Assembly: GCA_008632985.1 (NCBI GenBank)
Contig: QPGO01000007.1
Location: forward strand, 744,001-808,000
DNA: 64,000 nt
Direction of reading: 5' to 3'
From: Psammoneis japonica
Taxonomy: Eukaryota
This document shows, piece after piece, positions 21,250 to 63,000 of the stretch. Within the stretch, counting starts at the first letter, position 1. Each line of letters begins with the position of its first letter. Made by a program: the position numbers and the translations under genes. The notes beneath the pieces were generated by a model, which searched no databases, was not told where the DNA came from, and saw only the letters and a list, made by a program, of their open reading frames with translations.

Positions 21250-22560
21250 AGGGAGTGCCTGGGATGCATCTCATGAGTGGCAGCCTTGGCATGCACCAGC
21301 CAATTTGTCTGCACAAATGTTCACCTTTGCAGTTGATGGAGGGGAATGGACTGGGGCATTCTCATCTTGGTGTCCCTTGCCCCACTTGATGGTGAGGCTG
21401 GGTGAAGAAGCAATCTCCACTGAATCTCTCTTTGACGTCAAAGTGTGCAAAATTTCGTTGATTGTGTCCCAATCAGAAGCAAGTGCATTGGCTCCATGGT
21501 GCCACAAACAAAAATCATGAGAGTCATCTGACTTGCCTTCTGGAGATGGAGTGGGCAAGGCAAGATGCAATTTCTCTAGACAAGATGCCAGAGACTTGTT
21601 GTCACAATGTGTGTCCGCTGCTTGAGTCAACTTGGCTCGACAAGATTTGATGCATTGGCAAATGAAGCAGACAATGGAGAAGATTCTGCAGGCTTCTGTT
21701 TGGTGCAAAGACAACTTCTTTCCAAATGCTGGCCCAGCACAATCCACCAGTGGAACACCTTGGAGTGCAATGGTCCATCCAAATGCAGCACCTTTGTTCA
21801 CCAACCCATCACTTCCTGCTGCAAGCTCTGAAGAAACAAGCACTGCATCAAGACAAGAGGTGACATGTGCAGGTCCAACTCTGCAAACAACTCTGATTCC
21901 CATTGTGGCAATGCCTGCAGCATGTCAAGAAATGATGCTGGGGCAGGTTGGGGTGCAGAGGTTGTCAGCGAGGTTCATGGAAGATCAAACTTCCATCTGC
22001 CATCTTCTGTTGTGGTCAGTTCAACTGGATGGGATTCATCTGATGGTGCAGGAACAGTCTCCATCTCCCCAATGGAGTCCATTCTTGTGCCGTTGACCAA
22101 GAAAATTTTCAAACCCCATGGATCCTTTGACATGCAAGCAGTCCTCTGAAGGAGAGAAATGCACCGACACTTGCACTCACATCTGGGAAGGAGAGACCAA
22201 CCATTCTCCAAGTGGCTCTTTCAATTGGTGAGTGGTTGGATGACACAGGCAAGTGCAGAGTTTCCTCCATGCTGACCAAGCTCTGGCACCCAGTTTGTGC
22301 TGTTCAATGCCATTTAATGTGCCAACACTGCTCTGAATTGAGGGATCCCCTTTGACTTTTGTTGGGTCCAAGGTGAGGCTGTCTGACAGAGTCATGTCAG
22401 AAACAGAGAGCACCTGCAAAACACAAGCAACGCCAATTGATCCACCGGATTTCTTGGTGAGTGAAGAGCTGAGACTGAAGGGCAACATCCACAATGTGCT
22501 GGTCATTGTCTTGCTGCAGAGGAAGCACTCCGTTGTGAGTCAGGTGGACTTTGCCACAGA
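21250..22560 (-). mobile_element. Non-LTR (LINE-like) retroelement fragment with RNase H-like domain, nested in the Copia
   Basis: GSDG...AAFGW...CDNKSL...SDWD...KWGKGHQD...NICADKLA matches the RNase H domain of non-LTR elements. Confidence 0.65.
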
Positions 22561-31592: not shown

Positions 31593-33594
31593 TCAGTACA
31601 CTTCCACGTGCCATTGCTTGTTCTTCTTCAACCCCTTTAACCACTCATCGTAATCGATATTCTTCGATTTGGCGACACTTTGGAGCATGTCTTGGATACC
31701 AGGCATCATTCCCTTCAACCCGCAAAAGTAAATGTGGGCTCCATTCTCCAACTTTTCAAACACTTCATCAGCATACTCTTCGACCTTGTCTTGGATGTAC
31801 ATTTTGCCTCCTTTCTTGTTCTCTTGTTCACGCGAAAGAGCATAGTCAAGACGGAATTGATCAGGGTTGTTCTTCTTCACCTCTTGCCACTCGTCATCGT
31901 ACAAAAGAGCGTCGCTGTTGGCAACACCCAAGAACAACCATGCTTGTCCCTTGTAAGCATTCGCTGCAGGAGTGTCCTCTGTGAACAACCGACGCACAAA
32001 GCCACGGTAGGGAGCAATACCAGTTCCAGTAGCAACCATAATGTAATCCGTGTTGGGATCCTCCTCGGGCAAGAGCATGACCTTACCGGCGGGACCAGTC
32101 ATTTGCACTTGATCGCCTGGCTTGGTATCACAGAGGAAGTTGGAGCAGATACCCTTCTTGGCAGGGTCGTCGGCTTTCAACTCGGGGCACCAGTAAGTGG
32201 CACGACGGACGCAAAGACTTCCAGTTTTGCCAGACATATCATCACCGTAACGACTGGAAGCGATTGAGTAGAGACGGACCGAGTGAGGCTTTCCGTCCTT
32301 TTCACGGACACCTGGGGGGATGACACCCCATGACTGTCCTTCCCAGTAGGGAAACTTGCCCTTGTGGTCAATGACAATGTGACAGGTCTCTCCCGTTGCC
32401 TTGGGTCCAACAATTCGCTTGGTGGAGACAACCTTTCCGGTAAAGGGAGCCTTATTCTTGAAAACATTAACGGGAACGGTGGACTGGTCCCAGTAAGGGT
32501 CAGCTTCCAAGAAGTCCTGCTTTTTGGACCCTTTTACAAACTCACTACCGGTAATGAGAGCTAGGGCGGCGAGTGCGGCAAGCCCACCCTTTTTCCCCGC
32601 AAGGGTAATGGCAGACACAATCACACCGGCGGAAACGACACCGGTAAAAATAGAAGACAAGGCTACCGCTGTGGGCATACCCAAGAGAAAAGCACCCATT
32701 GCTCCCGTCCAAGCACCGGTTCCTGGAAGTGGAATACCGACAAAGGCAGCCAACGAAGCCCACTGTTTCTCTACTGAACCTACACCAAGACTTGCCGACT
32801 TTTCTTCTGCACGAGAAAGCATGGGAGCCATCAATTTTCTAATGGAACAGCATTATGGTGAGCAAGGTGCAAACAATATTTGCACACAAGGGTAAATAAA
32901 TAGCAAAAGCATCACTCCAAACGACTCACTTGAGCTTTTCATTGCGGAGCAGAAACATCAGGGGAACAATTGGCATCATGTTACCAATCACACAGGCTGG
33001 CAAGACTGTAGTGATGGGCAAGCCCATCCAAAAGCCTACAGGCACTGCACCACGAAGTTCGACTACGGGCAAGGCTGAAATAATTGCCAAAACTGCCACA
33101 TCGGGAAGGCCAAAGGACTGAAAGTACTGCGCAATCTTTTGTCCTACATGCAAATGTTCCGTCGAAGCACCGGCAGTCGCAGCTAGAGCGGGTCCAGTAC
33201 TGAGCAAAGTTAATGCACTAAACGCAAGAGCAGCCCGTGTAAAAATCTTCAATGTCGCCTTGCCAAACTTAAACTTCCTCGTTTTCGAAAAGGATGCTTC
33301 CGAAACATCTGAAGATTTCGTATAGAGCGGTCTAGTAACACTGACTCTATCGCTGATAGGAGAAAGAGCAGTCCGAGCAGCATTTACTCGATACACATTA
33401 CACGAATTGAACCTATTTAGGGGAAAAGCAACGACACAAGACGATTTTGGTGGTGAATGACACAAACAACATGACAGTCGCGCTAGCTAGCAACTACCCT
33501 ACGGATCAACATACCGCACAGAGGGACCTGAAGAAAAGGCATCTATCAAAGGCAGGCCCAGAGTCACAAAGGCGGCAAACGACAACAGCTTCAT
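31593..33594 (-). CDS. Plastid-targeted fusion of a 'small multi-drug export' type membrane domain and ferredoxin-NADP+ reductase; exons 33594-33515, 33412-32930, 32838-31593
   Basis: Presequence ...[40 protein letters not shown], then in the same exon [12 protein letters not shown]...WHVEVY, nearly identical to the FNR at 5501-6436. Confidence 0.85.
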
Positions 33595-33753
33595 CTTTCG
33601 TCTCCTTTTTGATGCGTCGCCTTGTCGATTGATGCCGATGTGCGGCCGCGGCATGGCGACTGAGCAACGAACGGCGGACGGTGGACTGCGGGCGTTTCGC
33701 GCAAACCCGGATGTCGTCTGGGACCAAATCCTGGAGCGGTTTTTGTTCCTTTG

Positions 33754-34451
33754 NNNNNNNNNNNNNNNNNNNNNNNNNNNNNNNNNNNNNNNNNNNNNNN
33801 NNNNNNNNNNNNNNNNNNNNNNNNNNNNNNNNNNNNNNNNNNNNNNNNNNNNNNNNNNNNNNNNNNNNNNNNNNNNNNNNNNNNNNNNNNNNNNNNNNNN
33901 NNNNNNNNNNNNNNNNNNNNNNNNNNNNNNNNNNNNNNNNNNNNNNNNNNNNNNNNNNNNNNNNNNNNNNNNNNNNNNNNNNNNNNNNNNNNNNNNNNNN
34001 NNNNNNNNNNNNNNNNNNNNNNNNNNNNNNNNNNNNNNNNNNNNNNNNNNNNNNNNNNNNNNNNNNNNNNNNNNNNNNNNNNNNNNNNNNNNNNNNNNNN
34101 NNNNNNNNNNNNNNNNNNNNNNNNNNNNNNNNNNNNNNNNNNNNNNNNNNNNNNNNNNNNNNNNNNNNNNNNNNNNNNNNNNNNNNNNNNNNNNNNNNNN
34201 NNNNNNNNNNNNNNNNNNNNNNNNNNNNNNNNNNNNNNNNNNNNNNNNNNNNNNNNNNNNNNNNNNNNNNNNNNNNNNNNNNNNNNNNNNNNNNNNNNNN
34301 NNNNNNNNNNNNNNNNNNNNNNNNNNNNNNNNNNNNNNNNNNNNNNNNNNNNNNNNNNNNNNNNNNNNNNNNNNNNNNNNNNNNNNNNNNNNNNNNNNNN
34401 NNNNNNNNNNNNNNNNNNNNNNNNNNNNNNNNNNNNNNNNNNNNNNNNNNN
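33754..34451. other. Assembly gap (N run)
   Basis: Run of n. Confidence 1.
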
Positions 34452-35251
34452 TTGGGAGCAACCCCAATGCTTGCTGAGAATGTCAGCAGGGTTGTGGGAG
34501 CCTTCGATGAAGTGGAGCTCAAGGCAACCAGAGGCAATTGCCTCACGCACACGGTGGAACGACAGTGCGGTGTGTCGCTTGTGTAACTTGGAGTGCGGGA
34601 TGGTGGCACTGTCTACAACCGACTTGTTGTCACCGAACATGTAACTGACATTGCGGATCGGGATGCCAAGGCAGCGCAGGGTGATGCGCAGGTCGACAAT
34701 CTGTTTGACACAAGTCCTTGCTGCAACAAATTCAGACCCGCAGGTCGCAGTCTCCAGGGTGGCTTGCTTCTTGGAGAACCAATCAGCCGGGAATTTGTTG
34801 AGGAAGTGGAGCATTCCCATGACAGAGCATCCAGTGAGCATGCAATGGTGCAAGTTTGCATCGACGTAGTGGGTGGCAGTGACGAACTTGCCAAGGGGCG
34901 GTGGAGCGTCCTTCGGGATCATCTCTTCTGCTTCGCCGCACACGGAATGCATCCATTCATGGGCCGGAGCAGGGAGATCTGAATGGTCGGGCTCTTCCGT
35001 ACAAATGCGGAGAGCGCCGTGTCGCATCTTGGAGAGGTGCCCACAGACGCGTTTGGCACGATCCAAGTGGCCTTGACGGGGTGCAGCTCGGAAGCTAGAG
35101 AGTGACATGGCGGCCGTGGCAATGTCAATTCGACCAAGAGACACTGCCCATTGGAGTGAACCAACAAGGGACTGGAACTTGTGAATGCCATCGGGCTCCA
35201 GCAGTTCGGAAGTGTCCAGTTCGGGGTGGTCGCCCTTCTCCAGAGGTGACA
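34452..35251 (-). mobile_element. Inverted Copia RT-end/RNase H fragment, paralogous to 42240-43040
   Basis: LSPLEKGDHPELD...WFSKKQATLETATCGSEF...NPADILSKHW on the minus strand. Confidence 0.92.
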
Positions 35252-38200
35252 GATTAACAGTCTTGCTCATTGTCAACCCATTGAGCAACCGCCATCGTCG
35301 TCGTTGATTTGCCGACGACGCCACTTCAATTCTGCATGGACCTCCGTACATGTTCCACATGCATCGGCAAGTTTACGCGCATCCAACACCAGGGCATCGG
35401 CAGGAAGTTAACGTCACGGTCATGGCCTCCTCACCGCTGGACATCTGGATTGATTGTGCCACCTTTGATCGCTGAAGACATGCATTCAACGGTCATGTCC
35501 AAGTCCATCCTTGATCCTCATCCCTTGACATGCCCATTCATCGGTTAACGGTCAAGAACCCTGCATGTTCAAGGATCTCTGTCGCTGAAGACACATGTGT
35601 GCACATGTCTTCACGGCCAAGGACTTGAACCCACTCTTTGGACTGCGGCTTTGCCACCACTCTACAAGCACGCCGAGTCTGTTGCACCTGATCTACCCCG
35701 GACTGCTGGTGCTCTGCAGTTCCACTGGGTCCACGAGGACGACTGTGAGAGCAAGCAGCCGTGATTGCAGCCTACGTTGGGGCGAGGGTGTTTTCCCGCG
35801 TTTGTTCGTTCGTCCACAGTGCCTGGCGCCTGCGTCAACTGGCCAGCCTGATCGGAAAATCCAACCGACATAAAATGAGAACGGTTTGGGGGTCTTGTCC
35901 ACCTCCAGTCAGCTTGCCTGCGGGGGTTTGCAACCCGCTGCTCCGCTCGCAAGCAACCCAAAGCGCCACTGGCTGCGGGTTCGAACGTGCCGGCACAACT
36001 CTAAGGACCGGACAGGAAGTTTAGCACTTGACAACGAACGGGACAGCAAAGCCCAGCGACTTCTGATTTTGGGGCAGTTCAAGATTTCAAGTCAAGTCCA
36101 TTTCAAGTCAAGTCTGTTCTCACCCAAGCTTCAAGTCTGTCTTCGCTTCCCAACAAGAATTGATTGTCCTGACACCACTTTTGTCTACCATGGTTCTCAC
36201 TTGTCAGCAACAAACCGATGGTTTTGAGCACGTTGTTGGAACCGTGCTTGCCCAAGGTGCTGGGAGTCCTCTTCGTTTGGCTTTGGCCCAAGACGGCATG
36301 GACTCGCATCAAGAACTGTTCACGTTCATGCCGTCCCAAATCGACTCGCTTGAGTGCGACAACGGCACCAATGTGATCCCTTTGCCCCGCGGTTGTGAGA
36401 ACATGTTGGCAGCCCCAGTTGGTCTGTACATTGTCAAAGCACACAAAGGTCTTGACGTTGCCAATGACTCCTCGTTGTTCACGCATGACGAGTTCCTTGC
36501 CCACCGCCTCAGCCCCGACTGCATGTCTTCTGTGTCCATCGGCAGCTCACCCCTCGCACCTCCGCATGTCACCAACCCGACCAAGGCACGCGACCCGGTG
36601 CGAGACTTCAAGCGAGGCATCAAGCATGACCCCACCGCTTTCACGGCTCTCAAATCCGACAAGCAGTGGCACACTTGGCACACCTCACTTGTGGCACAAG
36701 CCCGTGCCCCCAAGACGTCGAGTGCATCCTAGACTCGTCGTACAAACCGACCAGCCCCAAAGACAAACTGCTCTTTGCTGAACAGCAAAAGTGCATGTTT
36801 GCCGTCTTCGAACGCATCCTTCTCACCGACAAGGGCAAGGCTCTCATTCGCGAAAATGTGGGGTCTTCTGACACCCAGACCGTCTGCCGCGCCTTGTCTG
36901 AGCATGCGCTCGCCTCCACCCGTGCATCTGTCGAGTCCCCCACCTTGCTGGCGTGCCTCACCACCGCACGTCTTGGTGATGGCACTTGGAAAGGTCCGAC
37001 CCACGGGTTCATCCTTCATTGGCAAGATCAGTTGCGCAAGTGCGAGGCACTCATCCCGGCCAGTGACCACTTCTCTGAAGGACAGAAGTGCATCATGCTC
37101 GAGAATGCCGCACACCCTGTCGAGGAACTCCGTGCTGTCAAGAACCAAGCTGATCAGCATCGCACGCAGAGTGGCAAGAGCCTCACATACGATCAACACT
37201 GTGGCTTGCTGATGTGTTTTCATCCCAGGTGAGAAACGCGCATGCGGAGGTGAGACATTTCGTCTGTCCCTTTTCCATTGCCATGCTTTTTGTGCGAGCA
37301 AATCTGACTGGACTTTCCCCCGATTTTTCATTTCTTCTTTCTGCAGACATGTTTATTTTGAAAAGCCAGCCGTCATTCTCATTGGTTGAAGGGTGCGCAC
37401 AAGAAAAGCGCTTTCTCGAAAGCGGCATTTTTTGGAGTGAAACTGACAGCTGTCTGCTCGTTGTTGTTATTCTGGTGCATTTGAGAGACTGTTCCACTGT
37501 TTCTTTCACCGAATCTGACCACTTTGAAAGAATGCACGCATTGTTCATTGTGTGAAGAGCTCACACCAAAAAAGAACGGCGTTCTAACTCTGTCATTTGC
37601 ACAAGAAAAATCGGGGGAACTGACTTCGCACGTGATTTTTTTGCGCGATCGGCCATTTCAAAGATCGACTGATTTGTCGACCTGTGTGGGACACTTGAGT
37701 GAACAAAACAATGGGATTGAAATGGCAGCGTCAAAGTTCAATGTGTGTCTAGTCATTGTGTGATTTGACATGCTCAAGCAGAGTTAAAGATGAAATGTTG
37801 ACAAAATTTCACCGCTCAAAATGACTGGTTCTATCTTAGAATAAAATAAAATGGCTGCAACACTGAGATGTCGCTAATGGCATTGTTCTACTTTACAACA
37901 ATGAAACTGTCACACTTGCATCTGAGATTCTTTATCCTCACACACCCTCAAAACCGAACACATGACGATTCTCTTGTCAGCAGCGAAATCTGATGTTGTC
38001 GCGCGACCCAAAAGCGTCGTCCACAACGACTCAAAGTGTGGACGATACATTGTGAGAATCACAGCAACGTGTCATAGAAACATTCTTCGTTGTCAGTGTC
38101 CGGTGTCAAGTAGATGGAGCAGCGCGTTGATGAGAATCCTACTTCGCAAGCTGAGGAAGAGAGAAAGAGGCATCAAAAATGTCATGAGTCAAAAGGCCAT

Positions 38201-41200
38201 CCACAAGGCACAACAAAAAACAAAGATCAAATTTTCAACCACATCATCGCACCGAGCGTTGTCTTGTTGACCTGTCTCGGCATTCTTACCTTCTCAGTCA
38301 CAACATCCGTTGGTGCAAGAATGGACGAGTTCATGGCGACGGCATGGTGCCATTTTCGGTTTGCGCGAATTGTGGTTTGTGGTTCGAGACATGGAAAAAC
38401 ACATTTTTGCTGTCATGGAGCTCGTTTTTTACTAAGATTTTTGGTGCTAAATGCACGTCTCATGTAGAAACACGTAGAAAACCTCGTGATGTGACCAAAA
38501 GTTTCTCACCCAGGATGAAAACACATCTGCTCCTCTCCGCGGCAGCTCAATGCGACAGTGCGTTTCAACCCAAGACGACACCTCGAGCTCCCCGACGCGC
38601 CATGTGCGCACACGACGTCTGCTCCGAGGAACCGTCCAATGATGTGTTCTGTGACATTGACAGTGACATTGACGTCCTTCAGGCCAATGCTGCCTGCACC
38701 CGTGGTCCCAGCCTCACCGGTGACCAATGGAAACGTCTCCCTCCCGACCACCAACGGATTTGGGATTCGTTGCCCCATTCCTCCAAGGCGATCATCCTTG
38801 AGCATTCTTGCCCGCCTCCCCGCAACCCGCAAGACAGCAACTGCCATGAGTCCATTGCGGCCAACCTTCACGACCACCGCCTTGGGAGTGACGGTGATGT
38901 CAACTTGTCCAACACGACTCCTGCTGACTCTGGTGACTCCACTCCAAATGTGGGTGCCACTTTGGACAATCCCATCCTGGCGCACCTCACCAAGCGCAAG
39001 CCACTGCCACCCGGTGATCTGCAACGTCTGTTGTCTCCTAACCAAGCCCCCAATGCTGGTCGACCGGGGCCATCCGCCGCTCCCTCTACCCCGCCAGCTT
39101 CTGCCGATGACACAGAACTTGGCGGCTGCACTTGCCATCGCGTTGATGACCACAATGTCATTTGCTCTGCCTCTGCTCATTGCTCCACACGCACTGGTGC
39201 TCTGGTCGATCGTGGGGCCAACGGCGGCATTGCTGGCGACGACGTTCGCATCATTGCACGCACCTCTCGCCAAGTCGACGTTCAGGGCATTGATGACCAT
39301 CAATTGGTGGACATCCCTGTTGTCACCGCTGGTGCCGTCATTGAGACCCAGTGTGGTCCCGTCATCGCCATCCTCCATCAGCACGCATGCACGGGCAAGG
39401 GCAAGACCATCCATTCCTGCGGCCAGCTTGAATGGTGCAAACAGGATGTCAACGATCGCTCTGTCAAGGTGCCCAACGGCTTGCAATGCATTGCCACTCC
39501 TGGTGGCTGTGTCATCCCCATTGACATCAAGGGCGGCCTGCCTTGTGTTGCCATGCGACCTTGCACTAATGCCGAGTGGGACACCCTGCCCCATGTCATC
39601 CTCACCGGTGATGACACATGGGATCCTTCCGTCCTCGATCACTCTGTCACTGACGATGACCAGTGGTGCGACGCGATCTCTGACCCACAGGACGGTCCCA
39701 CTGCCAACCTGTTTGACGGGTGCGGCAACTGCCGTCATCGTGTCATTGTCAACGAGACCATCATGTCCACTTCCTTGTCTGCCGATCACGCGTCCACCCT
39801 CGATGATCACCTCATTCTGAACAACGACGTGTTCTGCGAGTGTCATCTACATGCGATTGACCCCAAGGACGACGACGTTCCGCCCCTGGAGCGCACTGTG
39901 CAGCCCAAGGACCCCCCCTTCGAGTCTCTTCGGCCTTGCTTTGGCTTCCCACCTGCCGATGCGGTCCGTCGTACTTTTGACTGCACCACGCAGTGCGCCC
40001 GCATGCCAGCCGGCACACACCTTGGGAAGGCCTGCAAATCACCCAACCCCGCCCTTAACGCACACCGCCGCAACGAGCCTGTCGCCACTGACACCGTTTG
40101 TGCCGACACCCCGGCCGTCGACTCTGGTTGCACCAGCGCCCAACTGTTTGTTGGCACCGAGTCTGCCGTCACTGACGTCTGCGGCACCAAGACGGACAAA
40201 GAGTTTGTCAACACACTCGAGGATCAGATCCGTGAGCGTGGTGCCCCATCCAAACTCATTGGCGACCGTGCTCAAGTTGAGATCAGCAACAAAGTGCTCG
40301 GGATCCTACGAGCCCTCTTCATCTCCAGCTGGCAAAGTGAGCCTCACCAGCAACACCAAAACTTTGCCGAGCGTCGACACCAGACCGTGAAGCGCATGGC
40401 GAACACTGTCATGGATCGTTTTGGTTCGCCCACCCACACATGGCTGCTGGCGCTCATGTGCGTGTGCTTCACACTCAACCATGCAGCATCCCCACGTCTC
40501 CACTGGCACACGCCCCTCGAGACTCTCACTGGCTCCACCCCGGACATCAGCCCATTGCTTCGCTTTCACTGGTGGGAACCCGTGTGCTTCCACCTTGATG
40601 ACTCCGATTGGCCGTCCGAATCCCGTGAGTTGCGTGGATGCTTTGTTGGCATTGCTGAGCACGTCGGCCACCAGATGACCTTCAAGATTCTCTCTGACGA
40701 GACTCAGAAGATCCTCCACTGGTCCAACGTACGCTCCGCCACCACCGATCCTGCCGTTCGAAACCTGCGTCTTGATCCTCCTGATGGGGAGCCACCTGAA
40801 CCCATCATCAAATCTCGCCATGATGACAACCCCGTCGATTCTCCTGATGGGGAGATCAGGACACCCAAGATGCCAGTTTTCGATCCGCAAGACATCATCA
40901 GACGCACCTTCTTCATGCAGCCACAAGAGGACGGACAATGCCACAGAGCTTGCATCGTCAAGGCCGTCGAAGACCACGAATGGAAAGTGAACGGCAATCC
41001 CGAGCTTGCTAAGTTCATCTGCTCTGTCAACAATGACGAACACGAGGAAGTCCTTGCCTGCAACGACATCATGAATCACATTGAGCAAGAAGACGAAGAC
41101 ACTGCTGTTTGGAAATTCCGACGCATCGTGTCACACGAAGGACCTCTGAAGCCTCATGACCCAACCTGGAAAGGCTCAAGCTACAACATCATGCTTGAAT

Positions 41201-43375
41201 GGGAAAGTGGGGAGATCACGTCCGAGCCTCTTGCCATCATCGCCAAGGACAACCCCATCACCTGCACCATCCATGCACGAGAGAACGGACTTCTCGACAC
41301 GGATGGCTGGAAGCGGTTCCGCACCATTGCGAGGCGCCAAAAGAAGCTATTTCGCATGGCCAACCAAGCCAAGCTTCGCTCCTTCCGCACTGCACCTCGC
41401 TGCAAGTGCGGACACGAAGTTCCCCGGAACTGCAAACATGCCATGTCACTAGACGAACGCAATGGCAACCGCAAATGGGGAGACGCAACTAATCTCGAGA
41501 TGGACCAACTCGAGGAATACGAAGTCTTCCATGACTGCGGGCCCTTCGAGTCTTCCACTCCTCCTGCGGGACACAAGAAGATCCGAGTGCACCTGGTGCA
41601 CGACGTGAAACATGACGGTCGCCACAAGGCACGACTCGTAGCCGATGGGCACCTCACGGACATGCCTGTTGACAGTGTCTGCTCCGGAGCAGTCTCCCTC
41701 CGTGGCCTTCGGCTGATGATTTTCCTGGCCGAACTCAACGAGTTGGAGACATGGGCCACCGACATTGGCAATGCCTGCCTTGAAGCCACCACCAAGGAGA
41801 AGCTCTACATTGCAGCCGGACCCGAATTTGGCAAACTCGAAGGACACATCCTTGTCATCCACAAGGCCCTGCATGGACTGCACAGCTCCAGCCTCCGCTG
41901 GCACGAGCGCTTCGCCGACTGCCTGCGAGCTGAAGGCTTCTTCCCCTGCCGCGCCGAACCCGACATTTGGATGCGCAGGAACGGCGACCACCATGAATGC
42001 ATTGCCGTTTATGTGGATGACCTCGCCATTGCTGTGAAGGACCCTCAATCTTTCGTTGACACTCTCACGGAAAAGTGCAAGTTCAAGCTCAAGGGTGCGG
42101 GACCCATTGAGTTCCATCTGGGTTGCGACTTTTCCCGGGATCCCGACGGCACCTTGTGCCTGTCTCCGCGCAAGTACATCGAGCGCATGGTCGACAGCTG
42201 CACCCGACTGTTTGGGGAGAAACCTGCCACCAACGCCCTGTCACCTCTGGAGAAGGGCGACCACCCCGAACTGGACACTTCCGAACTGCTGGAGCCCAAT
42301 GGCATTCACAAGTTCCAGTCCCTTGTTGGTTCACTCCAATGGGCAGTGTCTCTTGGTCGAATTGACATCACCACGGCCGTCATGTCACTCTCTAGCTTCC
42401 GAGCTGCGCCCCGTCAAGGCCACACTTGGATCGTGCCAAATGCGTCTGTGGGTGCCTCTCCAAGATGCGACACGGCGCTCTCCGCATTCGCATGGAAGAG
42501 CCCGACTGTTCGGATCTCCCTGCTCCGGCCTGTGAATGGATGCATTCCGTGCACGGCGAAGCAGAAGAGATGATCCCAAAGGACGCTCCACCGCCCCTTG
42601 GCAAGTTCGTCACTGCCACCCACTACGTCGATGCAAACTTGTGCCATTGCATGCTCACCGGACGCTCTGTCATGGGAATGCTCCACTTCCTCAACAAATT
42701 CCCGGCTGATTGGTTCTCTAAGAAGCAAGCCACCATGGAGACTGCGACCTGCGGGTCTGAATTTGTTGCCGCAAGGACTTGTGTCGAGCAGATTGTCGAC
42801 CTGTGCATCACCCTGCGCCACCTTGGCATCCCGATCCGCAATGTCAGTTACATGTTCGGTGACAACAAGTCGGTTGTAGACAGTGCCACCATCCCGCACT
42901 CCAAGTTACACAAGCGACACACCACACTATCGTTCCACCGTGTGCGTGAGGCAATTGCCTCTGGTTGCCTTGAGTTCCACTTCATCGAAGGCTCCCGCAA
43001 CCCTGCTGACATTCTCAGCAAGCATTGGGGTTGCTCCCAAATCTGGGACCTTCTCCGCCCCCTCATGTTCTGGAACTTCATTCCATCCGAAGTCGAATCT
43101 GTTTCTGTGGCTCCTCAAGCAAACTGGGGAGTGACAGGATTTGAACAGGATTTGGGTGCGCGCGAAATGTCGCGCGCTGTTTAGTTTGCCGCGCACAGTT
43201 TTGTGTGCTTTAGTTCCGCGCGTTCGCGCACGATGTAGTTTGCTTTCGAGCCACGAGGCTCACAAGAATAACAACAGCAGCCCGATCACACTGACTTGCA
43301 CGTCTTTCGGCTCCTGCAATGGTCTCTGAGCGGAGACTCATCTGCCATTTAGACAGCAGCAAGGAGTCATTGTTT
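35252..43375 (+). mobile_element. Younger Ty1/Copia element: PBS about 35252, gag from about 36190, pol to about 43130, PPT about 43125-43131, truncated 3' LTR 43132-43375; no 5' LTR
   Basis: Protease LVDRGANGG; integrase VATDTV, SEPHQQHQNFAERR; RT HLVHDVKHDGRHKARLVADG, YVDD; RNase H; frameshifts at about 36705 and 42421. Confidence 0.95.
37211..38527. mobile_element. Non-autonomous TIR DNA transposon (1317 bp) inserted in Copia gag, 4-bp TSD TGCT
   Basis: 27-bp TIRs gatgtgttttcatcc(ca/tg)ggtgagaaac; tgct at 37207-37210 and 38528-38531. Removal restores GLLLS, as in the old copy at about 22750. Confidence 0.9.
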
Positions 43376-52600: not shown

Positions 52601-52949
52601 CTGATTCTTTTCTTTCCAACAAAAAATCATGTTTTTGAATAAGCCCTTCTGTGCCTAATTCGAAGCGAAGGATGAAAATTCCAGAATTCATTTGGAATGA
52701 ATAGTTGGGTTGTGGGATCGAGCTCATATTCGATTTTGATTTGAGATTGGGTATCTCTGCTGCGAACCTGGGGGCCTGGGTGTTCACCAAAAATGACTAG
52801 TCGTAGATGAAACTCTAGAGTGGTATAATAGTGGATCAACGCTTCGAGACTAGTTATGGTGTTAACTTGCCATCGTTTTACTCTTTCGTTTGTTCAATAC
52901 CCAGTTCAGTTGACAAATTTGCAACCAGGGCTAGCGATGCGTTTCAGTT

Positions 52950-55503
52950 TCAAACCTGATTATCCGTGAAATCATCTTCGGATGTCATAACTGTATCTGC
53001 AAAGCTGCTCCTAGCTCGAAAGAACCGCTGTAGGGTCACTGCAGCCTTTCCTTCATCACCGTCCACACTAGCACAGACTGCTTCCGAACCACTGAACATG
53101 GGGTATTCTTCTTCGGCATCACTACCTACCGGATCACTGCTGTTGCGTTGCGAGGTCTCTTTCGATACTAGTGTACGCCATTTCATATATCGTACAATAC
53201 TTTCTGGGTCTGTTCCATCCTCTTCAGAATCCCCAACGCCGAGTCCAAGCTTCTTTTTGAGATTAGACCGGTTTGACAACTCCGCAATTGAATTTCGCAC
53301 ACCCTGTCTAGCCTTTTGATTCAACAGAATGCAGCCCAATACCTCCGCAAGGCTTAGATAAAACAAGGACCACACTCCCTTTGCCCACACTATTGCGAGC
53401 ACCATGTTAACCACCCCAAAGATAACGGGAAGGAATAGTTTTCCGATCTTGTCTGCATATCCCAGCTGGAATTCGCTGCTCCGTTTGATCTGTTGATAGC
53501 TGGACTCGTAGGCAGTAATGAGGAACGCGATGAAATGGAAACTGAGAGAAAGCATGAGAAATACGTCGAGCAAGGTAAAGGCCGTATCAACTTCTGATAC
53601 GGAGGCTTCTCGCAAAGCCAACGACGCCAGAATCGTTGTAATTGCCATTCCACCACGGTCCAAATTTATGCTATCAGACCGAGCAGGAATCCAGAACTGC
53701 GCAAAGGAGATGATATTGAGGAGAAAGCTAGGAACAACCAACGACAAGATGACAAAAGTTGGATCTCTTGCCATCCCCACACGATAATGGACAACCTCGT
53801 AGTTTGTATTCTCAATGTCCATGTTGACAACAGTGGCGCCTTGCTCCCAATCATTGTTGGTAATTGTGACATCAAAAGCCTCGTCATCCGGTAACTCCAA
53901 AGTTGGCGCAAGCGTGAATTCGTCAGGAGTGTAGGATGTCACGTCAACGCCACATCTATGATCGTCAAACGGAAAGTGCAAAAGGGTATCGTCCATCGTA
54001 CCACAGCGATACTCAGCAGCGCTGATGCTTTGTTCCCAAACAACACTACCATCCCGATAGACAGTCGTGGACACTGTCTCAATGCGACCAAGGGAAGTGC
54101 TAAGCATGTTGCTCAGGACTACAACTGGGTGCCATATCGTAGCAACGTCCACACGAATGAACTCAGTATCCGGAAAGCTCACTGAACTCCATGCAAGACG
54201 CTTGTCTTTCCATGAGAGCACGAGCAGCCCTTGACCAAATATGGACGATGTTGCGGCGTTGACCTCGAATATCTGAAAGTTCTTCAGTGCTGCAACAACC
54301 GGCACTGGCTGCTTTATATCTGAGGGATTCACATTGTTGCACGCGCGGAACTTATAAATGGAGGAATTTTGGGGTTGTACAAGACAAGACGTTCTCGTAG
54401 AACTACCTTGGAAGGGTCCTTGACTCGAATGGCAACTGCTGTAGACACTTCGTTAGGGAGAGATGAAACGAGCTCGCTCCAAGCTGATTCCTGAAGCATG
54501 TTGTAGTCGTTCAGACCGCAAGTGGGGCCTGGATTCACGCTACAATCGGTCGGTTCACCAAATTCACCATCGCCTGTCGCTTTGGGAGATAAGAGGGTCT
54601 GCATTGTGTACACCACTCCACTTGGAGGAGTCTGATCGACGGTGGCAAACATGTCACCAGATTCGAGCAAGGGTATAGTGTAGGCGTTAGCATCATATCC
54701 GCCCACTAATAGCTTCTTGTCCGGACGTATTTGGCGAGCGGAAACTAGTGCACCCAGCGCCATGTCGTCGTTGGCTGCAATGACGGCATTGACGGAGCCG
54801 TCGCGTAGAAAGACTGGCGACATTATGGCGGCCGCTTTGTGGCACTCCAATCTGCATAGAAGGAATATTTGACGTTGTGCTTGGCTTCTGGGCAGGTCTC
54901 GTTCATGCCCCGAATGAAGTTCTGGATTCGGGCCGTAGAGTGCCCCGCGTCCGGTGGCCCGTACAAAACGGCGATGGTGGCAGGGGCGATCGAGGCAGCG
55001 GCGCGACAAAACTCCTCTCCAACTTGTCTTCCACCAGCGGCATTATCTGGAAAGACCTCGGTTGATCTAATGTTCTCTTCCGTCCTGTTCACTTCAAGAG
55101 CCTCAAAATCGGGCTGGTTTTCGATGAACCATCCAATAACACCGGCGCGGAGTGCTGGCAGATATCTTTCACCAATGTTCCCAGGGTTACAAGCGCCCTC
55201 TTCGCAATGATGGGTCTGCAGGATCGTAGCTACGAAGTGAATGTCGGCATCAGGGTTGACCGCTTTCCGGTCAGTAACCGCAGTAACAGCCTTCATTTCA
55301 TCTTGATCTGAGGCAATACAAGTCACCGATTCAAAGTCTATGAGTTCAACGAGATTGTCTTTCAAGTTAGTGAAGAATTCCGACTTTTTTGTTTCTTTGC
55401 ATCCTTGCATAATCAGGTGGCGTTCCACCGTTGGCGAAGCGCACTGAACCACACGTTGACCATGCCAAAAGGTGAAACAAAGAAGGCCGAAGAACCGGAT
55501 CAT
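52950..55503 (-). CDS. Signal peptide + periplasmic-binding-protein-like domain + pentameric ligand-gated ion channel + C-terminal IQ-like motif; two apparent 1-nt frameshifts (about 54835 and 54340)
   Basis: DNAAGGRQVG, ARIQNF, VIAANDDMALGA, VGGYD, ATVDQ (RbsB-like); LYNPKIPP, WKDKRLAW, IWHP, C...FPFDDHRC, DRGGMAITTIL, TLLDVF (pLGIC); AAVTLQRFFRAR. Confidence 0.8.
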
Positions 55504-58029
55504 CGTGAAAACGTCGTTTCCGCTTGCTTCAGCGCGCTGCGGTGCGATCCTTTTTTCATCTTATTATATAAACTTGTGGCTGGGTGAATCCGGTGAATTC
55601 GCTCTCTACAAAATTAGACACGTCGGAGAGATCCGCCACATCGTCGACACAAAATCATGTGATGCTGTGCGACATTTTTTTATGTTTTTTTTGATGAATT
55701 CGGACATGCATGTCTGACGTGGTTGTCCGCGCGCGTTGTGGCAGCCGGGCGAACGCCAGACTTAGACTGAAACCCGAAACACGATGTCGCTGCTTCCGAC
55801 AACTTCAGGCGACGTTCTCAAGGTTCAACATTGAAGGTGTGGCATAGGAGAACATTCATTCGTCGACATTTATGATAGAGATGAAGGAGAAAATATCCTG
55901 ACTGTTGTGGGAGGTGATGCTGAGCTGAAAACAAGAGCTCATCCACAAGTGCATCCGTCGCCTTTTCCTATCGCAACCGCCTGATCGACTCAGAATGCCA
56001 AGAAATTCACGAGGAGGGGTTGTTTAAGGAATTAGAGAGACCCTTCATGTAATAAAGGAAGCTACTATGGGCAAGACAAGGAAACAAAAGAGCAATTCGA
56101 GGACGTGAGGACCCGCAAGCTGGTGGACCCACAAATCTGCCAATCTACCACCGGAGACAATTTGCAATGTAGGAGACGACTCCTAGTTGTAACTAGCAAT
56201 TACAAGCACTAGTCCATGCTACTTTATCATATTACGTATTAAAAATCTATTCTTATCATTGCAGTAATGATTTCCAGCGCTTGGAGCCTTGCAGAGAGAA
56301 CTGCCTGCGCACACCAAGAACAGGATCAATCCCACTTCCGGGCTTCAATGTCACTAATTGTGTTTGTTGACTTTTGCCAAAGCTCATATTGGATGTCCTC
56401 CTACGTAGCAGATGCTTCCTGTGCTATTCTATAAAGTGTCCAATCTATATTATTAACAAACTGTGCATCGTTCGGTGTATGCAAAATGATTAAAATGGTG
56501 TCCGACAAATGGGTTCCGGCCAGCTGTCGTCATTTACCTATCACTGGCAGCATTTTCTACAGTTTGATCCCGATCTTAGAAATATTGACCACTTCAAAAC
56601 GCCTCTTTGCAGACAATATGAACAATTTAAGCCGTGCTCCGAGTCGATTTGGTTGGAGCTGGAATGTTCAAAGGATCCGAGGTCCAACTGCTTGCGGCTC
56701 CTCAGGAACTCGCATAAATTTTTGGCACCTGATAACTGCCCAGGATCGTCTCACTTAGTCATAGAGGGTGGTGTTTGAGCCATTGATTGAAACTTTTGGA
56801 TGGATTAATGTAGACATTGAGTCGATTTGAATGTCGCAAATGATCGTGACAAGCGAGGATTGCCGCGCTTGCTTTTGTTTTTGAAACGGAAAACACTGCC
56901 AAAGAAAGAGCTTGTGCCTTTCTATGTCATCTTTATCGAATATATCGTCCAAGTCATGGGTACCAGCATAATACATTCCACTTTACACCTTCAAAACATT
57001 TGCTGTCGTGTCGGATGCAGAAGAAACAAAGAAATTGAGTGAAAAGTTCAGATGACGATTAAAGGCATCAAATGAAGATGCCTTGCTTTAGTGCCCTTAC
57101 CTTATCATCATAACGAGGTTTTAACATGCTATCCAGGTGTTTCTTACACTTGGTGTTAAATATTGCCGCCGCCGCAACCGATCCCATGGTCGACTTGAGT
57201 TGCGTCGCGTTATTGCGTTTTCGATGAAGAAAAATTGATTTTATGGGTTATGAGCGTTTTGTCGAAAATCACAGCGCGGACGTGGCCCAAACTACTACAG
57301 AAAGAATAAACAGGCGTCAGACGCCAGTTTCCTAGCGTTTTACCGGTAAAATAATTATTTAGAAATTGCGTACAATTTTAAAAAAGAGATAAGGTTGGAT
57401 CGAAAAATGCGACAGAGACGCACAAAAACGCGACACAACACGACAAGCGACAATGGCGACCATGTGGGGATGAAAACAATATCCACACTAATTTCAGGCA
57501 TACTGTAGTAACAATATAAATATGATAAGTGTAACTGATACAATATTTGGCTCACTGGTGTCTATCTAATAGCTCTAATCGATCATTCGAGATGATGCCA
57601 TTGTCATCAATATCCCGTATTTTGCTACGCGTAATTCACGTAGAAAATTGCAAAAAAAGCCATTGACAACGATGCTCTGAAATCAACCACAAACTGCATC
57701 CAGAGTCAATATGGGCACACATCTATACTTATTACTCGCCATACGACATATCTAATGCGTTTCGTCCCACAAAAATTAGTCAATAGCGTCACCGGCGGCA
57801 CGCCATTGTCAGCATCGAATGCCGTACAAAAAGCACGGGGACGACGGAAATCGACTTCTTCTGTCGCATTTGTCTGTCTATCGCCCGTTTGTCTCGTAGA
57901 ATCTACGAGAAAGTTCCCATACATTTTACGGTCTGTCCATGCTTCATCTGACGCCTGTTTATTCCTGACAACCGATTGTTCTGCGCGTAGCAAAAGCGTC
58001 GTGATAACATACATACAGTAGACTACCCG

Positions 58030-60002: not shown

Positions 60003-63000
60003 TCAGTCACTCTGGCATGACAAGGGAACCCTGATGACCTGCAACAACCCCCATGGGCAAAGGGAACCAGATGTGACAGACAACCAGTCTTTGCTGATGT
60101 CATGGAGGATCATCCCCACAAGTCCATCTCGCTTCATGCCACCACACATGATCTTGGTTGCAAGATCTGCTGGATTGCATTCCAAATGAATGTGTCCAGC
60201 AAGTGACTCACCAACTGCCATGGACTCCCTCACGGCATGGTGGCAAATGGAGTTTGACTTCTTCTTTAAAGCAGACTCTGGACTTTGCGCATTGTGGACA
60301 ACTGACTTGTTGTCCCCACAGATGTGGGATGGACCAGCCAGTGGTGCACCCATCATCCTTGACTTGTGTTGCAAGCCACACAATGGCTCCATGCCTTGCT
60401 TCATGGCTGTGAACTCAGCTCCAAAATCCAAGGGTTCAATCGTGCTTTGGCGCTTGGAAAACCACACCATCAAGGCCACATTCATGTGGATGAAGAAGCT
60501 GGTGTGTGAGCGCCTCGTCAACTTGTCATTTGCATGATCCAAGTCAACAAACAAGCACAGATCAACCTCCAAGCCCAGAGGTTCTGGTGCATTGGGTGGG
60601 ATTGCTTCATGCACATTCCCATGGTTTGTCCAGACGCACCTCTGCATTCTTGATGGCCTGCTGGACACACTTGCTGGAGCTCATTGCAGTGTGCATGCAG
60701 ACAAAAGGTTGTTTTTGTCACGCCCTTTGTGACATTTAAAGGCTGCAACATGTCGCCGTGATGCATCAACTCTTGTTGGCAGCTGCGCACTGCACTCCTC
60801 CCCATGTGTCACGCGTCCATGCGGCTCTTTACTGACGTGCACTGACACTGCACGGTTTTCGTGGAACAGTGTGGGTACGTGCGAAGGAACATGCAGAACT
60901 GCACAGAGTTTTACGCGTTCGACAGTGATCAACGTTGCTGCGGACAACTCCCACTCAGGGTTTTGAACCCCTGGCCTCCTGCCCAATGGTTGCGATGAAC
61001 CACTCCGCTGTGAATTCACGGTGCAGTGTGCATGCAGACAAAAGGTTGTTTTTGTCACGCCCTTTGTGACATTTAAAGGCTGCAACACGTCGCCGTGATG
61101 CATTGACTCTCATTGGTGGCTGTGTGTTGCATCATGCCCCATGCACAGATGCCATTTGGCATTTGCACCTCTCAGATCTTGGCACCCAGACACATCTCAG
61201 GGTTGCTGATTGAACCAGGCTTCATCTCGAAGCAATGATCCAACTCCTTGAGTGCACTCATGGCATTGTGGTGTGCCATCAGCACATCATCCAGATGCAG
61301 CAGTGCATGTGTGCAGTGCCGAAGCCCATCCTTGGGTTGGACCACTTCCTTGAGCCATGCATCAAGATTGGCCAGGCAAGGCTTCCACCCAAGATGGTGC
61401 ATGCAGGAGGCCAAGTGACTCCTGAAGGCCGCACCTGTGCTCTGCAAACCACAAAGCACATGCTTGACTGTCGCACACCTCCCTGCATTGTGTCTGAACT
61501 TTGGACACAGAGTCGCAGTGATCTTCTCACTGTCAGGTGCAGCAACACAAGCATTTTCAATGTCAGCTGCTTTGACCTCTGAGTCATTTGGAGCAGCTGG
61601 AGTCAAGGCAATCCTCACACTCTCACGTGACATGATGCTTGCATGCCTCAAGGTGGCAGGAGCATCAGCAGCATGTCCGCCAGCCACACAGCGTGCCTTG
61701 TGCTTGAAGTCTTGCAGCTTCATGTTGAACACCAAGTGACATTTGATGTGCTTGCATCCTGTCAGTTCCTTGTTGTCATCAATGATCTCAAACGCCTTGT
61801 TGACTGTGCCCATTTCCTTGTCTGCAGCATCTTGCCACAGGTGATTTCCATTTGCCTGGTCAATCTTGACTGCCTCATTGTACATCTTGGGAGTGCACAT
61901 CCCGCACTTGTGCATCCGTTTGTGATGCCACTTGTTTGCTGCAGCACTGATCTGCTGCTGTTTCTTAAAGGCACATGGAGCCCACCATGCAAAGGCTGGT
62001 CCATCCTTGATTGGCTCTGGCACACTCAGCCAACTTGGCCGGGTTGGATTCCTTCAAGTCTGCAAGGTGTTCCCAAGTCAAGGTTCCATCCTTCCAACAA
62101 ACACAAAGGTGCCATCCTTTGGTCATCTTGCACATGATTTGGTGTCCTCTGCTGTCCTGCAGGAAAGTGCCATCCTTCTGGACTGCATGCCCATCAGTCT
62201 TGTGATCAACAATGGTGTCCAGAAGCAAGTGCTGGTTGCTTTTGTTGTCACATTGTGCCAACATGTTCTCGGCCATGACGTTGGCCACAAACTCCACTTT
62301 CTGACCATCAGGAAATCAATCTCATGCACACAAGTGTCCAGAATGAAATTGGCACTGGCTCTGCCCATTGGTGTTCCATCTCAATCAAGCTTGCACTGTT
62401 TGACTGTCCCAGTTTGTTGGGTGTCCCTGTGAGGCAACAATGCTTCTGAGTTTGCACAAACATCAAAAGCAGCATCAGGGATGTTGTCCTTGTTGGGTGC
62501 ACTCACGGGAGCATCCTGGTCTTCATCATCCTTGCATGGATCAAAAGTGGGGGTCACAGCATCAGGGTCATCAATGTCTCCAACCATCATGCCCAGACCT
62601 GGCTTGGCCTCCATCAGCTCATCAAATTTCTTGTGCAATGCCAAGTGCATCTCGGGTGCTGTTCCTCAGGGTTCAAGGGTCAACAGGATGAATGGTGGAC
62701 AACTTGTCCATTGTCTTTTAGCATCTTGGCCATCACAGTGGGACCTGTGTCTCAACTTGGACCAAGGCAACACCCTGGGACTTCCTTGTCCTTGGGGAAT
62801 GAGACGGCTGTGTCCCCAAACATGACCCAGTCATGCCAGCCAAACTTGCACATGTGCGAAATGTCAGCTGTCTGTCCAGACACTGTGGTTTGTGGAACCT
62901 CCCCATCTAACTTGCAAATGTTGTGGACAGCATTGGATCAGATGAGAGCTTCAAGCTCAAGACAATCGTCCCAAAGGCATTTTGGGGCTTGAGTCTTCAC

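Follow-up and report, generated by a model that had tools for sequence, protein, structure and literature searches.

The 64,000-nucleotide window analysed here (Psammoneis japonica assembly GCA_008632985.1, contig QPGO01000007.1, positions 744,001 to 808,000; all positions below are those of the window) carries on its minus strand an intact gene in which a PBP-type (periplasmic binding protein) domain is fused, in a single open reading frame (ORF), to an ion channel of the pentameric ligand-gated kind (pLGIC) with both cysteines of the Cys-loop and a C-terminal tail. The stretch as a whole is best explained as an intact diatom nuclear gene for one pLGIC subunit bearing an N-terminal clamshell of the RbsB/LacI kind, an explanation that we favour on balance. 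The product is likely to be a functional channel subunit.

The channel part comprises 462 residues, encoded from 54338 to 52953, and was modelled with AlphaFold2 from a 96-row alignment. Its extracellular domain (ECD) matches the Pfam family Neur_chan_LBD in the third frame (53775-54335; E 7.6e-19, 68.4 bits against a cut-off of 26). The model has a mean predicted local distance difference test score (pLDDT) of 78.2, with 94-98 in the beta-sandwich, and helices at channel residues 194-216, 225-250, 256-287, 295-319, 323-363, 378-398 and 433-441. The four helices M1-M4 that follow the ECD are all present in it, and M1, M3 and M4 are also hydropathy peaks. With Foldseek, the model matches the GABA-A rho1 receptor (8op9), GLIC (6hyz, 3eam), GlyR and the nicotinic acetylcholine receptor (nAChR) with probability 1.0 and E of about 1e-20 (TM-score to target 0.65-0.75), and the best sequence match in the PDB is the Torpedo nAChR beta subunit (E 4.5e-16). 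The FPFD core of the pro-loop is present, and P123, D125 and R191 (the pre-M1 arginine) fall in columns at least 90% conserved in the 96-row alignment. An earlier note, made from the letters alone, had read a pLGIC extracellular domain and transmembrane region here, and the domain match, the modelled helices and the Foldseek result agree with it. Two features make a cation-selective pore probable, with M2 numbered in what we take to be the usual way: Asp stands directly before Arg where M2 ends on the inner side, and ITTIL lines the pore, as it does elsewhere in the family. In our reading of the sequence, the product would be a ligand-sensing cation-channel subunit.

The Cys-loop is longer than usual. 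It reads C-GTMDDTLLHFPFDDHR-C, with 16 intervening residues, and its cysteines are C501 and C518 of the full-length protein. Cysteine occupies both columns in 88 of the 91 rows of the 96-row alignment that cover them, at a spacing of 13 residues in 75 rows, 14 in two, 15 in five and 16 in six (the window, P0001, P0004, P0005, P0006 and P0012; P numbers denote homologues). The second cysteine is in its usual place, three residues past FPFD, and a 3-residue insertion directly follows the first. As the insertion comes after the first cysteine and the second is kept in place, this is a lengthened Cys-loop and not a Cys-less Pro-loop. On the alignment, the window's loop counts as a true Cys-loop that has grown from 13 to 16 residues and in which the disulfide may form. 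The earlier note had set its 16 residues against the canonical 13; the count and both cysteines stand, but this is no separate type of loop, only a canonical Cys-loop into which three residues have been inserted.

Upstream of the channel, the protein opens with a short hydrophobic run (MIRFFGLLCFTFW...), as do the N-termini of the homologues, and an N-terminal signal peptide is plausible. The N-terminal domain (NTD) that follows matches the Pfam family Peripla_BP_4 in two pieces, in the first frame (profile positions 99-168, E 1.1e-3) and in the second (positions 169-241, E 4.9e-8). In four intact homologues the same family scores above its cut-off (P0001 59.7, P0004 61.1, P0005 68.4 and P0006 58.0 bits). 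Compared with the PDB, the C-lobe piece of the window is closest to sugar-binding PBPs (5dte, E 3.8e-7) and to allose- and ribose-binding proteins. Among NCBIfam models it matches RbsB, AlsB, MglB and YtfQ, all far below their cut-offs. Naming a ligand from curated models was rejected, as the NCBIfam equivalogs for sugar-binding and LacI-type proteins all score far below cut-off.

The window's own NTD is split by a fault in the assembly, and the fold was examined on the NTD of homologue P0005 (388 residues, 49-51% identical to the window pieces). Its model (pLDDT 87.6) consists of alternating strand-helix units in two Rossmann-like lobes. In Foldseek it is matched best, with probability 1.0 over about 350 columns, by ribose-binding proteins (2ioy, E 2.6e-16; 2fn9; 1drj), followed by allose-, galactofuranose-, arabinose-, inositol- and glucose/galactose-binding proteins. 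Several motifs are kept across the family, namely R203, an A-N-D-x-M-A-x-G-A block, G-x-D, T-V-D-Q and several cysteines. A number of these conserved positions are presumably sugar contacts in RbsB. The RbsB-like domain of the earlier note is therefore correct at the level of fold and subfamily (P0005 model, Foldseek and Pfam), although its ligand is not nameable.

We propose that the product would enter the secretory pathway and form membrane pentamers that hold the PBP and beta-sandwich domains on the outside, five clamshells standing above the ring of ECDs. A small solute, most likely monosaccharide-like, would close the PBP clamshell, and this closure would pass to the adjoining ECD and open or modulate the pore. 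A hairpin of M4 and a putative fifth helix, M5, would return the C-terminus to the cytoplasm, where the tail, with its basic-aromatic helix and IQ-like motif, would take the regulatory role of the animal M3-M4 loop, possibly via calmodulin. Judged from the sequence, we would put the PBP domain's role as the primary ligand sensor at slightly under an even chance.

The alternative that survives best, although we think it rather unlikely, is that the beta-sandwich takes up the agonist at its usual site between subunits. The PBP domain would then be an allosteric, assembly or anchoring module, perhaps with no sugar binding at all, comparable to the amino-terminal domain of NMDA/AMPA receptors or to the NTD of the bacterial channel DeCLIC. 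The DeCLIC NTD is reported to alter gating kinetics rather than to act as a primary sensor (PMC9897478, in the sections available), and Tasneem et al. suggested, in the accessible part of their text, that fused domains may only pre-concentrate or sense ligands that act at the channel's own binding domain (PMC549065). Two features of the window weigh against the PBP domain as sensor in the same way: aromatic residues are retained close to the loops where agonists usually bind (loops B and C, in our reading of the nAChR alignment), and the N-lobe of the PBP domain is too diverged for Pfam, which gave no match there. On the other side, the motifs of the C-lobe and hinge listed above, which dominate the Peripla_BP_4 profile, are kept family-wide, which fits a cleft under selection, and the NTD fold aligns over about 350 columns with monosaccharide binders that have their ligand bound.

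The reading frame requires two corrections. As assembled, the gene lies in three minus-strand stop-to-stop frames that overlap end to end, at 55560..54823 (245 aa), 55042..54329 (237 aa) and 54452..52950 (500 aa). The sequencing runs found for the stretch are three DNA runs from one sample and one study, and we compared the region 52800-55700 with them. In run X1, a single contig of 7223 nt (word depth 64.9) spans the whole stretch and differs from the window in 2901 bases by five substitutions (53925, 54722, 54844, 54979 and 55006) and two one-base insertions. The insertions coincide exactly with the two frame-change sites, and the substitution at 54844 (A>T, X1 against the window) adjoins the first of them. 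Run X2, which covers the region in part, has an insertion behind 54336 together with 54359 T>A and 54722 C>G; the base inserted at the second frame change differs between X1 and X2, giving two synonymous Ala codons. When the stretch is edited by script to follow X1, its 2556 nt form 851 codons with no internal stop, compared with 37 stops in the unedited first frame. Of the five X1 substitutions, a single one alters the protein (codon 220, Ser to Arg); the other four are synonymous.

Introns are not needed to account for the frame changes, since homologue P0001 (56-57% identical) is colinear through both sites. They were ruled out, as the Pfam profile and the homologues run through without gaps and the reads supply one base per site; the Peripla_BP_4 profile, for example, continues unbroken across the first change, with position 168 in one frame and 169 in the next. 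Because the read contigs restore one base at each site, the frame changes are errors, or an allele, of the assembly, and because both are one-base losses at or beside sites where the contigs disagree, they point to consensus error at variable positions. In our view they are faults in the consensus of this assembly, or an allele of it, and not features of the gene. The earlier note had joined three consecutive ORFs by single-base shifts over 52950..55503, and these limits match the first ATG of the first frame and the stop codon. It had also proposed checking the shifts against reads: of the DNA reads, X1 carries both missing bases, one at each junction, and X2 carries one. With the two bases restored, the fused architecture that it described, of binding domain, Cys-loop-type channel and C-terminal tail, lies in one ORF.

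We consider it very unlikely that the sequenced strain carries the gene as a pseudogene, with frameshifts that are real in at least one haplotype and an intact version in the reads that represents the other allele. The differences between the window and X1 would allow this, and so would the disagreement of X1 with X2 at the second site and at 54359, which means that more than one haplotype is present. However, neither deletion occurs in any contig compared, as X1 has both bases and X2 has the one at the only site that it covers (54336). Both faults are also single bases, in the same direction and at or beside variable positions, which is typical of consensus error, and the predominance of synonymous substitutions and an ORF free of stops over 851 codons do not suggest decay. 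That a secreted binding protein and a channel are in fact two genes that only seem fused, or are joined by an unrecognised intron or a mis-assembly, is hardly credible: although PBP and pLGIC are often neighbouring genes in bacteria (PMC549065, as far as the accessible text goes), the corrected ORF runs from one domain into the other without a stop, five homologues are colinear through the linker, two assemblies of an Entomoneis transcript keep PBP and ECD in the same ORF, and one read-derived contig, that of X1, crosses the whole stretch.

To place the intact fused gene among its relatives, the 462-residue channel part was searched against 1.84 billion cluster representatives, giving 2250 matches at E <= 1e-3, 171 at E <= 1e-10 and nine at E <= 1e-30. 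We scanned the domains of 40 of the 150 matches listed, chosen for a channel match that starts beyond about residue 200. Thirteen of the 40 carry both Peripla_BP_4 and Neur_chan_LBD (each at E <= 1e-3), whereas another ten or so consist of channel repeats in tandem. A hidden Markov model (HMM) built from the 13 NTDs found 19 further proteins, bringing the NTD-bearing proteins to at least 32 of the 151 top representatives. Relatives 46-57% identical with the same fused layout include a gene model of Seminavis robusta and a transcript of Entomoneis. The named members are four S. robusta gene models (annotated 'Ligand-gated ion channel 4' or nicotinic-receptor-like), the MMETSP protein of Entomoneis sp. 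CCMP467 and one EukProt Trinity transcript. The eukaryotic clade is sizeable and unstudied, and is already in public databases under generic receptor names.

The Entomoneis transcript is informative about the splitting of such genes. In one assembly (P0153), an ORF of 916 aa places the PBP domain and channel on a single transcript. In a second assembly (P0154/P0155), an ORF of 733 aa contains the signal, PBP domain and ECD and goes out of frame inside M1, and the rest lies in an ORF of 236 aa. Compared at the sequence level, the two show that assembly introduces splits of this kind into genes of the family as artefacts. The fused layout described in the earlier note recurs in diatom relatives, including a transcriptome-derived protein.

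A tree of the channel core was built from 90 of the 96 rows, after six fragments were dropped. All 22 NTD-bearing rows fall in one group of 26 (SH-aLRT 94), together with four rows in which no NTD was detected. Within it, the window forms a clade with P0001, P0004, P0005 and P0006 (support 99), and the other 64 rows, including three that are Cys-less, lie on the opposite side. Ten of the 32 NTD-bearing representatives are outside the tree alignment (P0031, P0032, P0034, P0037, P0044, P0046, P0087, P0094, P0124 and P0142). Within the sampled rows, a single fusion event is the simplest reading of the tree. Separately, we observed that nine predicted proteins in the search contain two to five Neur_chan_LBD stretches each (P0008, P0010, P0015, P0017, P0028, P0042, P0053, P0070 and P0102), up to five in the 1215 aa of P0010; judging from their predicted sequences, these would be either concatenated subunits or merged tandem genes.

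The C-terminal end of the channel departs from the usual topology. Two residues past M4 begins a further hydrophobic segment, GVWSLFYLSLAEVLGCILL, with a stretch of many Lys and Arg residues behind it. Its 19-residue Kyte-Doolittle peak is 1.83, compared with 2.32 for M1, 2.24 for M3 and 2.43 for M4, and the model shows M4 (295-319) and M5 (323-363) as separate helices. The C-terminus of a canonical pLGIC is extracellular, and the window's tail could be cytoplasmic and accessible to calmodulin only by way of the putative M5, a segment that the earlier note does not mention. From the hydropathy and the model, we consider a cytoplasmic tail reached via M5 reasonably probable. The M4+M5 pattern, with a tail of 78-422 residues, is also found in P0004/P0153, P0005 and P0006, and in a looser form in P0011, P0065, P0135, P0059 and P0023. 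In the other NTD-bearing branch, the M3-M4 loop is long and M4 stands at the C-terminus (P0026, P0031, P0032, P0035, P0038, P0048, P0073, P0087, P0124 and P0142).

Near the end of the tail lies the motif AAVTLQRFFRAR, which the earlier note had read as IQ-like. IQ-like motifs also end the tails of P0002 and P0006, and the motif of P0013 has one extra residue. In Seminavis P0006 the motif matches IQ_SCN5A_C below threshold (E 1.5e-4, 21.7 bits against a cut-off of 27.7). In a feature search of the ESM Atlas with the tail, IQ-bearing clusters rank first (0.83 and 0.82) at low recognition, which we regard as a lead only. The basic-aromatic motif ESIVRYMKWRT could be a second protein-binding site in the tail, apart from the IQ-like motif. 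Going by these sequence features, we regard calmodulin binding of the tail as doubtful.

Several further results weigh against our explanation and are best considered together. On the reads, X1 and X2 possibly come from the very sample that was assembled, which would make them independent base calls but not an independent organism; the support from X2 is a single contig at a depth of 4.7, and no RNA run is listed for the stretch alongside the three DNA runs. On the domains, Neur_chan_memb was not reported for the window protein at E <= 0.1, the two Peripla_BP_4 pieces reach 19.1 and 33.3 bits, each below the cut-off of 35.1 when taken alone, and the NCBIfam sugar-binding equivalogs reach 15-44 bits against cut-offs of 335-555. 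The Entomoneis ORF is itself split inside M1 in one re-assembly. The pLDDT of M5 is only about 60-80, that of residues 397-462 is below 50, and a monomer model cannot show membrane insertion. Finally, the Pfam IQ match to AAVTLQRFFRAR (E 0.14) reaches 12.5 bits where 20.3 are required and takes in only the first half of the motif (profile positions 2-13 of 21), and the tails of P0004/P0153, P0005 and P0007 are without an IQ-like motif. The domain families named in the earlier note therefore divide. Neur_chan_LBD is above its cut-off, and Peripla_BP_4 is above it in the homologues but below it in the pieces of the window. The IQ tail does not hold up as claimed: the motif is present near the C-terminus, but its Pfam match is below threshold.

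Table 1. Position of the fused gene and its parts within the window.
Feature	Position	Strand	Basis or remark
Whole coding region	52950..55503	-	ATG 55503-55501, stop 52952-52950; 851 codons including two bases missing from the assembly
Short hydrophobic N-terminus, probable endoplasmic reticulum signal peptide (residues 1 to ~22)	55438..55503	-	inference from sequence
Type-I PBP domain, RbsB/LacI type (Peripla_BP_4), about residues 27-361	54422..55425	-	Pfam covers only 54620-55056
First frame change	54840..54841	-	one base missing from assembly; X1 has extra C (+ strand) behind 54840
Second frame change	54336..54339	-	one base missing; X1 +A behind 54338, X2 +T behind 54336
pLGIC extracellular beta-sandwich (channel residues 1-192, full-length 390-581)	53763..54338	-	Pfam, model, Foldseek
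Cys-loop, 16 residues between cysteines (full-length C501, C518), FPFD core	53952..54005	-	alignment
M1 helix	53691..53759	-	hydropathy and model
M2 pore-lining helix, LDRGGMAITTILASLALRE...	53589..53666	-	model
M3 helix, then short M3-M4 loop	53478..53573	-	hydropathy and model
M4 helix	53382..53456	-	hydropathy and model
Putative M5, extra hydrophobic segment GVWSLFYLSLAEVLGCILL	53322..53378	-	Kyte-Doolittle mean 1.83 over 19 residues; close homologues too
C-terminal tail, 123 residues	52953..53321	-	predicted cytoplasmic if M5 spans the membrane
Basic-aromatic tail motif ESIVRYMKWRT	53172..53204	-	predicted helix; common to P0002, P0013
IQ-like motif AAVTLQRFFRAR	53010..53045	-	Pfam IQ sub-threshold; near C-terminus

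Among the other frames of the window are those of a cyclin, a plastid-type ATP synthase gamma subunit, an HD-domain protein and several copia-type reverse transcriptases, separated by long non-coding DNA. For the ATP synthase gamma subunit, diatoms supply every one of the best named matches (Cyclophora tenuis 86%, Nitzschia inconspicua 84-85%, Bacillariaceae sp. 85%), and further matches reach 91%. Judged by its sequence, the window is diatom nuclear DNA. The earlier note had inferred a unicellular alga as host, and these matches and the gene content of the window narrow this to a diatom.

Among the frames with reverse transcriptase domains, an uninterrupted one of 1461 aa at 38188-42573 (+) has a copia-type match (RVT_2, E 5e-25). 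The G+C content of its block is 0.55-0.57, compared with about 0.47, and the frame is probably a young Ty1/copia element. Shorter RVT_2 fragments lie at 25738-26427 (+) and 61172-62053 (-). Six stop-free frames of 317-593 aa overlap on both strands within the same 1-1.8 kb at 33491-35372. The 593-aa frame among them has no Pfam match and no array found by Tandem Repeats Finder, and the adjoining block at 32001-34000 has an unusual AT skew of 0.141. Two paralogous frames, at 31593-32852 (-) and 5303-6436 (+), contain the oxidoreductase domain NAD_binding_1, and the former additionally matches Sm_multidrug_ex (small multidrug export), an unusual combination. Pairs of same-strand frames of at least 200 aa that overlap end to end occur at 14983-16226 (-), 22465-23396 (+), 25037-26427 (+) and 36067-37232 (+); from their layout, these four may be more one-base faults of the assembly.

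To look for prokaryotic counterparts of the fused gene, we scanned one genome per species for a single PBP-domain motif taken from a 7-row alignment; a broad alignment of 16 rows contained no stretch conserved enough for a pattern scan. The scan gave at least 599 matching stretches, at least 111 of them confirmed by tblastn. The 80 loci kept among the matches listed match residues 128-322 of the NTD only, and no match to a channel HMM was found within 2 kb of them, which is a weak negative with one PBP motif. In a second comparison, covering 401 genomes of one bacterial class, seven had a pLGIC match, five of them over the cut-off; none of these five is fused, with frames of 365-410 aa. At the sequence level, a bacterial twin of the diatom NTD fusion was not found in this narrow search, and the published bacterial fusions were not among the sequences compared.

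These results could mean that a clade of Cys-loop channels peculiar to eukaryotes exists in diatoms, and perhaps in other protists, with a fused Venus-flytrap sensor of sugars or metabolites, a longer Cys-loop and, on one branch, M5 and a calmodulin-binding tail in place of the intracellular M3-M4 domain, although we regard this broader proposal as improbable on present evidence. If true, the fusion of a flytrap onto the chassis of a neurotransmitter receptor would be a design convergent with that of ionotropic glutamate receptors. The proteins would be solute-gated cation channels regulated by Ca2+ feedback, which turn sugars or exudates into membrane-potential or Ca2+ signals, and such signals would steer gliding, settlement or mating of raphid diatoms. 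The clade of fused channels found here provides a natural system for studying how an outer clamshell sensor is coupled to pLGIC gating, a natural test of how much variation in Cys-loop length is tolerated, and possibly the first pLGIC subunit with five transmembrane segments and a C-terminal regulatory domain. For diatom biology, it offers a concrete candidate receptor for dissolved organic compounds. The pLGIC expansion reported in the benthic, motile S. robusta (PMC11085791, in the part available) includes fused genes.

The gene and its relatives also contradict two published statements. Lycksell et al. (2022) stated, in the accessible sections, that NTDs of the DeCLIC kind occur in no eukaryotic homologue (PMC9897478), and a 2025 paper on DeCLIC likewise treats them, in the part available, as a prokaryotic feature (PMC12664993). 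A 2024 survey of diatom Ca2+ channels, to the extent that its text was available, described diatom pLGICs as 'cys-less' and reported an expansion in Seminavis (PMC11085791). Against these stand, in the eukaryotic clade of the NTD-bearing proteins, a PBP-type NTD and both cysteines at a spacing of 13-16. Jaiteh et al. (2016) found protist pLGICs and discarded from their alignment the termini outside the pLGIC domains; the available main text is silent on N-terminal domains (PMC4795631). Our literature searches found no description of a eukaryotic PBP-fused pLGIC or of a pLGIC with five helices.

The closest named relatives of the window are Seminavis CAB9498257.1 (P0006) and Entomoneis MMETSP0724 (P0153), with 46% and 51% identity in the channel part. 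Both share with it the order of Peripla_BP_4 and Neur_chan_LBD, the 16-residue Cys-loop, M4 and M5, and a tail, of 125 residues in P0006, 422 in P0153 and 123 in the window. The tail of P0006 ends with an IQ-like motif like that of the window, whereas that of P0153 is without one. These relatives are automatic gene models or transcript translations, and their names omit the N-terminal domain. Among the animal Cys-loop receptors (nAChR, GABA-A, GlyR and 5-HT3) the fold is the same (Foldseek probability 1.0), and the window shares with them both cysteines, the FPFD core, W-x-P, the pre-M1 Arg and the M2 motif ITT(I/V)L. Unlike them, it has a Cys-loop of 16 rather than 13 residues, a PBP domain, a very short M3-M4 loop, M5 and a C-terminal tail. 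The folds closest to the family's NTD are those of RbsB and the allied monosaccharide binders (2ioy, 2fn9, 1drj; TM-score to target 0.66-0.76), which are also the best sequence matches of the window's C-lobe, but at an identity of only 13-18%. The family's NTD further differs from RbsB in its extra conserved cysteines (such as C177 and C215 of P0005) and an inserted Cys-containing loop.

The ionotropic glutamate receptors (NMDA/AMPA) serve as a working analogy only: their extracellular PBP-type clamshells bind agonists or modulators, but their pore is tetrameric, unrelated and non-homologous to the window's channel. DeCLIC (Desulfofustis) is likewise a pLGIC with a large additional N-terminal extracellular module (NTD1/NTD2) that influences gating; in contrast to the window, going by the accessible parts of its published description, its NTD consists of two beta-rich jelly-roll lobes that bind calcium, with no PBP clamshell, and it is prokaryotic. 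The nearest precedent comes from bacteria, where Tasneem, Iyer, Jakobsson and Aravind (2004) described pLGICs fused to type-I PBP domains ('ART-LGIC') in Magnetospirillum and Bradyrhizobium and, in the portion of the paper available, proposed a role in small-molecule or chemotaxis sensing (PMC549065). As described there, these fusions have in common with the window a PBP-type domain N-terminal to a ligand-binding domain and a pore of four transmembrane helices, in one chain. They are, however, prokaryotic with a Cys-less Pro-loop, whereas the window's gene is nuclear-encoded in a diatom with both Cys-loop cysteines, groups with the Cys-loop receptors apart from the three Cys-less rows of the tree, and has a putative fifth helix and a tail as well. 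In bacteria, pLGICs with a fused binding domain have been known since 2004; what is new here is the eukaryotic setting, the lengthened Cys-loop and a predicted topology with M5 plus tail.

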